From NCBI RefSeq assembly GCF_048403405.1, contig NZ_CP183135.1: a stretch of 64,000 bases of DNA. One strand, written 5' to 3'. A program made the position numbers and the translations under genes. Source of the DNA: Escherichia coli (GTDB taxonomy: Bacteria; Pseudomonadota; Gammaproteobacteria; Enterobacterales; Enterobacteriaceae). Numbering within the stretch: the stretch's first letter is position 1; each line of letters starts with the position of its first letter. Below the pieces are notes generated by a model. That model had not been told where the DNA came from and searched no databases. It was given only the letters and a program-made list of their open reading frames with translations. Below, piece by piece: positions 27,673 to 30,092 of this stretch.

Positions 27673-27688
27673 ATTATCCCACGCTAAG
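27673..27688. repeat. inner 16 bp of the split 38-bp terminal repeat (contains the tnpA stop codon)
   Basis: Minus strand CTTAGCGTGGGATAAT; tnpA stop TAG at 27684-27686. Confidence 0.5.
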
Positions 27689-30092
27689 ACTGTTTTTTGT
27701 ACAATATGGTGTCGACTGTGCGTAATGAGCGGTATTTTCCGGATCCCAGCTTAAGATTATTACGCCAGACGTAATCTCCACTCAGATTGATATGTTCCCA
27801 GCCCAGGGGAGAAAGATGAGATACCAGTTGCTCATTTATCGGGATACCTTTTCGTTTTAGTGACTCAATAGCTCTTTCTATATATACCGTGTTCCACAAC
27901 GTGATCGCCGCTGTCAGTAACGTCAGCCCGCTGGCGCGGTAACTCTGATTCTCCAGCCCACGATCCCTTATTTCACCCAGACGGTGCATAAAGACCGCTC
28001 GCGCAAGGGCATTACGGGCCTCACCCTTATTCAGCCCCGCCTGTACGCGTCGGCGCAGACCGGGATCACGGAACCAGTCCAGCATAAATAGTGTCCGCTC
28101 AATGCGGCCAATCTCTCTCAGCGCTTTGGCAAGTCCATTCTGTTTTGGGTAACTGGCTAACTTTTTCATCATCAGCGATGCGGTGACTGTCCCCTGCTTA
28201 ATCGAGGTTGCCAGGCGCAATACCTCATCCCAGTGTGCCTCAATGTCTTTGATATTCAGGCTGGTTGTTGATATGACGGACTGAAGCCCCGGATAGCGTT
28301 CGGCCTTTCCATGAATAAACAGCCGCTTGTCATGAAGATCCCGGATCCTCGGCGCAAAAGCGAATCCCAGCAGGTGCATCAGGGCGAAAACATGTTCAGT
28401 GAAGCCTGCGGTATCGGTGTAATGCTCGGTAATTTCCAGATCGCTTTCATGGTACAGCAGGCCATCAAGCACGTGGGTTGAGTCGCGCACCCGGCTGATC
28501 ACTTTGGCATAGAACGGGCTGTATTGGTCTGAGATATGCGTATAAATCTGCACGCCCGGCTCCTGACCATATTTAAGATTGACCTGACCGGCATAACGTC
28601 CGTGACTGCCTACCCGAAAGTTCTGCCCGTCTGACGATGATGTTGTCCCGTCGCCCCAGAATGCGGCCAGAGGCCGCGCTTTCTGAGCGTTGACCAGCTC
28701 GGCCAGTGCCGCTGAATAAGTTTCATCTCTGATGTACCATGCCTGAATACCTTCGAGTGACGATTTTGTTGCCCCCGGGCAGGACTCCGCCATTTTTGTC
28801 AGCCCCAGATTGATGCCGTCGGCCAGAATGGTGGTCAGCAACAGTCTTCCGTCTTTTGGTCTGACGTTATTATTTTTGAGGTGCGCGAAGTGACGCGTAA
28901 ACCCCGTCCAGCTGTCCACTTCTTCCAGTATCTCTGTAATTTTCGGATGAGGAAGCATGCCATAAACCAAATCGGCAAAGGGCGAAACACCCGAAGGGAC
29001 GCTGTTCTCCAGCGGAGTGATTTTTACTCCTTTATCTGAAATATCAACATCGGGCAAATCACCGGCAAGCGCCATCGCGTTAACTTCTTCCAGACGCGAT
29101 GCAAGAAGCGTCATACGGGCCTGAAGATATGCCTGGCAATCGGTCTGAACGGCCAACTGTAACTGGTCATTGTGGCGGGATTTCTCAAACTCAGCAGTCG
29201 GGATGAGATAATCATCAAAATTTCTGTAGCGGCGCGATCCTTTTACCCAGATATCACCGGAACGTAGCGCCCCCTTGAGTTCATTCATTACGCAAAACTC
29301 GTAGTACTTGCGGTCGATTCCTGAAGGCGTGAGTACCAGTTTTCGCCAGCTTTCAGGGATAAATCCTGTTGGCGCCGATAGCGGCACTTTACGAAGTTGT
29401 TTACGGTACATTTCCCTGATGGTGTCCAGCGCATCGCTGAGCGTCTGCGCCGCAGGTGTCGCCATGAACTGCAATGCTGACAGCATACGCGGGGCGTATT
29501 TACGCAGCGTACTGTATTTTTCGGTGATCAGGTGAAGCGGGTCGAAATTGCCCTTACGGGACAGAAACCGTGTTTCTTCCAGGCTGTTGATGAACTCCTG
29601 CCAGGGAAGGACATCTTCTATCGCTGCCCAGGGATCTTCACCGGATTCTCTGGCATGCAGTAGTGCCTGACCGACAGTAAAATATTGCTTCAACTTGCTC
29701 TGGATGAGTTTCCCCGTCAGCTGAAGCCTCTCGGCTTGTGTGCGTTTTGCCTGGCTGAACAGAGTGCCCAGAATACGTTCGTGCAGTTCGATAACCTCAT
29801 CAGTCAGTGTGGCCCGCGCTTCCTGAATGACACAAACCAGCGTAGCGTAACGTCTGACATCGGTGAATTTAGCCAGATCTCTGCTGCTCATTTTCCGGCC
29901 CTCACGCGCCAGTTTAAGCAACCTGTTCTGGTGAACGGAAAGTGCAATACCATCAGGCAACCCCAGCGCAGCGATGGAATTAAGCCGGTCGATATGTTGC
30001 AGCACATTTTTACCGTTTATTTTACCCGGAGGCTGTAGCAGCCATGCCAGACGGGAAGGTTGTTCACCCTCTGATATGAGCAGGCTGTCGAG
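27684..30092 (-). pseudogene. tnpA: 5'-truncated transposase gene of a second Tn21-subgroup transposon, cut by IS26 copy 3
   Basis: About 800 C-terminal residues (...HQNRLLKLAREGRKMSSRDLAKFTDVRRYATLV...LGSGKYRSLRTVDTILYKKQS) alignable to, but clearly divergent from, the Tn21 TnpA at 3266-6232. Confidence 0.85.

Follow-up and report, generated by a model that had tools for sequence, protein, structure and literature searches.

The truncated transposase gene at positions 27684–30092 is best read as an inactive, IS26-truncated remnant of a second Tn3-family transposon that reached its present state by the history set out below, a reading to which we assign a probability of about 93%. The remnant and the Tn21 copy on this plasmid are not related by descent. 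The DNA analysed, a stretch of 64 kb referred to here as the window, belongs to an IncF resistance plasmid that is common in E. coli and is matched at 100% by the RefSeq plasmid pCREC571-1. Searches with tblastn located exactly two Tn3-family transposase loci in the window, at 3266–6232 and 27684–30092, and no third Tn3-family tnpA.

The truncated gene is an ordinary scar that is already known, being annotated in RefSeq and common to more than 100 sequenced plasmids, and as a routine pseudogene in a family of plasmids that has been well sampled, it opens no new question of mechanism. The analysis is of practical use for accurate annotation and for the epidemiology of plasmids: one plasmid may carry two unrelated tnpA genes of the Tn3 family, which should be neither merged nor both labelled Tn21.

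Identity of the truncated gene

27684–30092, minus strand: truncated Tn3-family tnpA, consisting of 802 codons (27687–30092) and a TAG stop (27684–27686)

The minus-strand reading frame that ends at 27684 contains, on translation, the peptide HQNRLLKLAREGRKMSSRDLAKFTDVRRYATLV quoted for this gene in a preliminary description of the sequence. The encoded protein aligns with residues 193–994 of 994-amino-acid transposases. Pfam DDE_Tnp_Tn3 (PF01526) matches along its whole profile (positions 1–389 of 389) with 501 bits against a cutoff of 24, and NCBIfam transpos_Tn3 (NF033527) matches over profile positions 174–954 with 1,038 bits against a cutoff of 500. The N-terminal 192 residues are missing, and a Pfam search found no DUF4158 domain in the truncated protein. 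By its catalytic domain this is a Tn3-family transposase gene, but it is a fragment that does not encode a complete protein; the PGAP annotation in RefSeq is ‘Tn3 family transposase, incomplete, missing N-terminus’.

The Tn21 gene in the same window

3266–6232, plus strand: complete Tn21 tnpA, 988 amino acids, assigned by identity to R100 and a common protein accession
6228–6265, minus strand: Tn21 IRtnp, 38 bp, intact, assigned by exact matches to both Tn21 repeat ends

The other transposase gene is the Tn21 gene of plasmid R100 (NR1), in the R100 r-determinant context. Window positions 2715–8527 are 99.98% identical to R100 at the nucleotide level over 5,813 bp, a span that takes in tnpR, tnpA, the terminal repeat, a GNAT gene, catA1 and IS1, and the transposase has the accession WP_001138064.1 (labelled ‘TnAs3 family’ by PGAP) in both pCREC571-1 and R100. 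The 33-residue peptide previously quoted for the Tn21 copy is present in the open reading frame at 3266–6232. DDE_Tnp_Tn3 and transpos_Tn3 match both window copies, and DUF4158 is found only in the Tn21 gene.

An IS26 copy at 1896–2715, which sits inside the first codons of Tn21 tnpR (R100 positions 16181–16188), is a simple insertion, with the duplication GCATTGGG at 1888–1895 and 2716–2723. PGAP still calls a 561-bp resolvase gene at the interrupted tnpR in pCREC571-1; as read from the coordinates, its TTG start lies within the end of IS26, and only the first four residues would be exchanged.

The truncated TnpA and Tn21 TnpA align by BLASTP with 469 identities in 778 positions (60%), 3 gaps and E = 0, and megablast found no nucleotide match between the two window genes. 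The preliminary description had held that the window contains two different tnpA genes, and that the truncated one, alignable to Tn21 tnpA with many substitutions, comes from a distinct transposon with a different terminal repeat. Each of these points is borne out: both quoted peptides are present, the proteins are 60% identical over the alignment, and the truncated copy falls in a clade distinct from that of Tn21 and has its own 38-bp repeat, with 30 of 38 bases in common with that of Tn21. Near-identity to Tn21 tnpA, which the same description had named as the outcome that would count against it, was not seen. That the truncated gene might instead be a diverged duplicate of Tn21 tnpA, both copies stemming from one transposon, is barely conceivable. 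Both are Tn3-family genes with 38-bp repeats that start with GGGG and end with ACGCTAAG, but the amino-acid identity is only 60%, megablast gives no match and the repeats differ at 8 of 38 positions; moreover, the fragment is 96–97% identical to copies on unrelated plasmids from other genera.

A terminal repeat split by IS4321

26324–26345, plus strand: outer 22 bp of the terminal repeat, GGGGTCCGCTTGGAAAACGGAA, placed by comparison with the uninterrupted repeat of pC278_NDM5
26346–27672, minus strand: IS4321 (IS1111/IS110 family), 1,327 bp, delimited by the insert length relative to the uninterrupted repeat
27673–27688, plus strand: inner 16 bp of the terminal repeat, ATTATCCCACGCTAAG, which holds the tnpA stop; exact match to the pC278_NDM5 repeat
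26072–26323, strand not given: IS5-family fragment, 252 bp, annotated by PGAP, abutting the outer end of the repeat

The 38-bp terminal repeat of the remnant is GGGGTCCGCTTGGAAAACGGAAATTATCCCACGCTAAG, and is seen uninterrupted in pC278_NDM5. In the window it is not contiguous: exactly 1,327 bp, inserted after position 22 of the 38, separate its two parts, a split on which the preliminary description was silent. The insert carries a transposase gene at 26601–27605 on the minus strand that matches Pfam DEDD_Tnp_IS110 and Transposase_20 and NCBIfam transpos_IS110, and that PGAP names ‘IS110-like element IS4321 family transposase’ (WP_000427623.1). Alignment with an IS4321 copy on the Enterobacter cloacae plasmid pEC-IMP shows identity at 1,327 of 1,327 positions, and the repeat halves are also 100% identical.

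Both IS4321 and IS5075 are known to enter the terminal repeats of Tn21-like transposons always at one site and in one orientation (PMC5034289, PMC8269217), and targeting of such repeats is also described in PMC11187229. For pEC15-MCR-50, which is among the plasmids identical to the remnant segment, the published description records the same insertion, under the name IS5075 and with an AA repeat. The reconstructed window repeat has the architecture of the Tn21 subgroup, with 38 bp beginning with GGGG and ending with ACGCTAAG and the tnpA stop inside; IS4321 occupies it at the same site and in the same orientation as at both ends of the pEC-IMP element. Compared with the Tn21 repeat, GGGGTCGTCTCAGAAAACGGAAAATAAAGCACGCTAAG, it is identical at 30 of 38 positions and different at the other 8, and both share the GGGG start and the ACGCTAAG end. 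The Tn21 IRtnp at 6228–6265 carries no IS4321 insertion.

The 252-bp fragment outside the repeat is annotated by PGAP as ‘IS5/IS1182 family transposase, incomplete’, and begins at 26072 with GGAAGGTGCGAATAAG, which we take to be an IS5-type terminal repeat. It cuts a histidine-phosphatase gene (25437–26071; PGAP, ‘histidine-type phosphatase, incomplete’). The IS5-family fragment and the cut phosphatase gene probably represent the old insertion context of the transposon.

Within IS4321, the stretch TTTCCGTTTT (26495–26504) lies in the 3′ non-coding region at 26346–26600, downstream of the transposase gene. It is complementary at every position to AAAACGGAAA, the 10-base segment across the IS4321 insertion point in the target repeat. 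When the 1,327-bp element was shuffled, about 8% of the shuffles contained, at some position, a match of at least 10, and no Rfam family matched this candidate guide stretch. Its position would fit the seekRNA (bridge-RNA) guide reported for IS1111-type elements (PMC11187229).

The IS26 junction

30093–30912, plus strand: IS26 truncating tnpA, 820 bp, delimited by the positions of its inverted repeats

The IS26 end GGCACTGTTGCAAA begins at 30093, immediately past the last tnpA base at 30092, and the cut corresponds to codon 193 of 994. The 820-bp element is identical to the other two IS26 copies in the window. Removal of the 5′ end of tnpA had previously been attributed to ‘IS26 copy 3’; the junction agrees with this, and the element ranks third among the IS26 sequences of the window when a 149-bp fragment at 15045–15193 is included. 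That fragment is an IS26 right end, 100% identical to the full copies, and adjoins IS1 and truncated Tn10 (tetB) sequences.

The element at 30093–30912 has no 8-bp target-site duplication, as its flanks, GGCTGTCGAG and TTTAAGCGTG, differ; in contrast, the IS26 at 1896–2715 is flanked by an 8-bp duplication, GCATTGGG. The absence of a duplication fits an IS26-mediated deletion or recombination better than a simple insertion. IS26-truncated transposon remnants in IncF multiresistance regions, such as those of pEC958 and of pEK499-type plasmids, likewise have IS26 against the cut gene without a target duplication, which is how such IS26-mediated events usually show themselves, and the window is a typical example of them. 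Blastn with the pEC-IMP element detected no further parts of the parent transposon in the window.

Directly beside the truncated tnpA, positions 30093–33917 hold IS26–aac(6′)-Ib-cr–blaOXA-1–truncated catB–IS26. Neither IS26 of the pair that bounds this segment has a target duplication, and the segment is a widespread IS26-bounded unit.

Relatives of the parent transposon

Amino-acid identity of the truncated TnpA to other transposases:
pEC-IMP (Enterobacter cloacae, IncHI2), residues 193–994: 97.5%
p104922-FII (Raoultella): 88%
TnEc1-like gene of pYD786-4: 79%
Tn21: 60%
TnAs1 (Tn1721-type): 58%
Tn5403: 35%

The closest intact relative is a Tn3-family transposon on the Enterobacter cloacae plasmids pEC-IMP and pEC-IMPQ. 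In pEC-IMP (NC_012555, 114658–128112) it measures 13,455 bp, or 10,801 bp minus the IS4321 in each repeat, and carries passenger genes of a redox and stress character (OsmC, TetR, AhpD-like, thioredoxin, alkene reductase, DsbA, SDR and alpha/beta-hydrolase). Its 38-bp repeats are identical to that of the remnant, and both are interrupted by IS4321 at the position and in the orientation seen in the window. It differs in being complete, and its resolvase and passenger genes are all absent from the window. Over the retained part, tnpA is 96.2% identical to the pEC-IMP gene at the nucleotide level, with 92 nucleotide differences, and is therefore a different allele; 68 of the codon differences are synonymous and 20 are non-synonymous. 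This mostly synonymous pattern points to the divergence of working alleles under purifying selection before the cut and not to later decay. Relatives at 96% nucleotide identity suggest that the parent was probably an element of this kind.

Tn21 and TnAs1-type transposases are 73.7% identical to each other, and the clade of the remnant stands at 54–60% from both. Judged from these identities, the clade appears to lie on the same side of the family as Tn21, as a more distant branch outside the core. With Tn21 it has in common a Tn3-family DDE transposase, a 38-bp repeat with the tnpA stop inside and a repeat type targeted by IS4321 and IS5075. It differs in that the resolvases of the relatives are only 28–35% identical to Tn21 TnpR and in that the pEC-IMP resolvase gene is divergent from tnpA, and not upstream in the same direction. 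The preliminary assignment of the truncated gene to the ‘Tn21 subgroup’ applies in a loose sense only; it suits the repeat architecture and the IS4321 targeting, and the transposase is an outlier.

The order of the resolvase gene also differs among the relatives, being divergent in pEC-IMP and co-directional in p104922-FII, and their resolvases are as distant from each other (28–35% identity) as they are from Tn21 TnpR. Modules appear to have been exchanged among these elements, as is usual in the Tn3 family. TnEc1 belongs to the same TnpA clade (77–80% amino-acid identity), and the repeat beside tnpA in the TnEc1-like element of pYD786-4 is more diverged. The sulP/usp transposon of p104922-FII (88%) has a closely similar repeat on the tnpA side, with IS5075 inserted in it. 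Both have other passengers and resolvase modules, and are too divergent to be the same element.

On pSE11-2 (E. coli SE11), an inverted-repeat pair of the remnant's clade bounds a 5.4-kb element (2132–7551) that contains a decayed tnpA (94.5% amino-acid identity, in three pieces) and genes for an MBL-fold hydrolase, an HTH regulator and an ester cyclase; the element has no resolvase annotation.

Name of the parent transposon

The annotations and literature covered give no transposon name for the remnant's clade. A Tn number may exist, ISfinder and TnCentral lying outside the comparison; none appears in the literature searched on the repeat sequence, on p104922-FII, on pEC-IMP with IS4321 or on the IncF plasmids. 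In the 1,929-member cluster of the pEC-IMP relative, all 40 members that were read are named only ‘Tn3 family transposase’. The nearest relative with a name in the annotations is TnEc1, at about 79% amino-acid identity; TnEc1 is an ISfinder name, and ‘TnEc1 family’ is the PGAP name for some members of the 79% cluster only.

It is very unlikely that the fragment is a remnant of one of the named elements Tn5403, TnEc1 or ISKpn24. Each name has a source: Tn5403 pieces are reported in pEC958 and pEC15-MCR-50, which are related ST131 IncF plasmids; a table in PMC7319535 lists ‘ISKpn24 residual-IS5075’, a pairing reported in Klebsiella plasmids; and ‘TnEc1 family’ occurs in the 79% cluster. The comparisons speak against all three. 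We rejected Tn5403 at a TnpA identity of 35%, ISKpn24 on the p11219-CTXM record, in which it is an IS66-family element, and TnEc1 at 77–80%, which falls short of near-identity. PGAP, moreover, uses only the generic name, both for the fragment and for the 40 proteins read in the pEC-IMP relative's cluster.

On pKP18-31-IMP (8405–12411), a Tn5403 tnpA is annotated against the outer half of an IS-split repeat of the remnant's clade. Its coding sequence continues through the repeat into an IS110-type element, and its last 25 residues match window positions 26325–26399.

Present state of the remnant

Because the remnant lacks a start codon, the DNA-binding end of the transposase, DUF4158, the resolvase and res module, the second terminal repeat and an intact first repeat, it cannot transpose, and any movement is passive, together with the plasmid or within segments bounded by IS26. 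The reading frame has stayed open and extends without a shift into the antisense strand of IS26, giving a mechanical open reading frame of 999 amino acids. An open frame leaves room, on the sequence alone, for expression of a truncated protein; it is also what is expected of a recent cut.

A remnant that is still expressed and functional, for example through IS26 read-through to a truncated transposase that interferes with related transposons, is highly improbable. The 802 open codons that run in frame into IS26 and the complete DDE domain would be consistent with it. However, the IS26 junction has no promoter-like site in a promoter scan, in which counts were at chance level, the natural start codon and DUF4158 are missing, and an open frame is to be expected after a recent truncation that has left too little time for visible decay. 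An Rfam scan of 26000–30300 returned zero matches.

We give very little probability to the broader proposal that the open remnant could yield a truncated, multimerising transposase with dominant-negative or immunity-like action against transposons of the same clade, or, in a weaker version, that the parent clade is undescribed. If the former were true, such action could explain the intact retention of the remnant in more than 120 IncF plasmids. The weaker version would concern a clade that is related to TnEc1, carries genes for redox and electrophile stress and has repeatedly been disabled by IS4321, and for which we found no name or description.

Distribution among plasmids and proposed history

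The fragment is matched by 1,333 plasmids in PLSDB, 135 of them at 99% identity or above. PLSDB contains 124 plasmids with exactly this tnpA–IS26 junction, and only 4 with the whole arrangement of phosphatase gene, IS5-family fragment, IS4321, tnpA and IS26. In the set of complete RefSeq E. coli genomes, two plasmids gave a single uninterrupted alignment of 24 kb at 100%; the other top matches cover 94%, which fits the absence of the 1,327-bp insertion sequence, and this absence was verified directly in the AR_0014 plasmid and in pC278_NDM5. A chimeric query that joined the 5′ part of the pEC-IMP gene to the 3′ part from the window found no intact copy of the remnant's exact allele in PLSDB; its best intact matches were pEC-IMP and pEC-IMPQ. 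The tnpA of pKP18-31-IMP has been cut independently by IS26, at a different codon.

The identity of the gene, its cut point, the split in the repeat and the spread across plasmids are observed directly; we infer the mechanism of deletion and the following order of events. A transposon related to that of pEC-IMP and to TnEc1 would have inserted in an IS5-family element near the phosphatase gene of an ancestral IncF plasmid, and IS26 would then have entered its tnpA. An IS26-mediated deletion, or recombination between IS26 copies, may have removed everything upstream of codon 193: the 5′ end of tnpA, the resolvase and res module, the passengers and the other terminal repeat would have been lost, and only 2.4 kb at the 3′ end of tnpA and a single repeat would have remained. 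Many E. coli IncF plasmids, forming a large family, would have inherited this truncated form. Later, IS4321 probably inserted into the surviving repeat in a small branch of that family, to which the window belongs. The placing of IS26 before IS4321 is drawn from the distribution counts and not from a plasmid phylogeny. Two features serve as lineage markers for this large family of resistance plasmids: the junction of tnpA with IS26, which is fixed, and whether or not the repeat contains IS4321.

In pC278_NDM5, inverted, IS26-flanked pieces of the tnpR–OsmC–TetR–AhpD-like module, 99.3% identical to pEC-IMP, adjoin the tnpA fragment. Their presence beside the fragment indicates that the IncF lineage once carried more of the element. 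The inverted piece extends over 2.3 kb (9230–11561), and its 99.3% identity to pEC-IMP contrasts with only 96.2% for the adjacent tnpA fragment, which suggests that the parent element may have been a mosaic.
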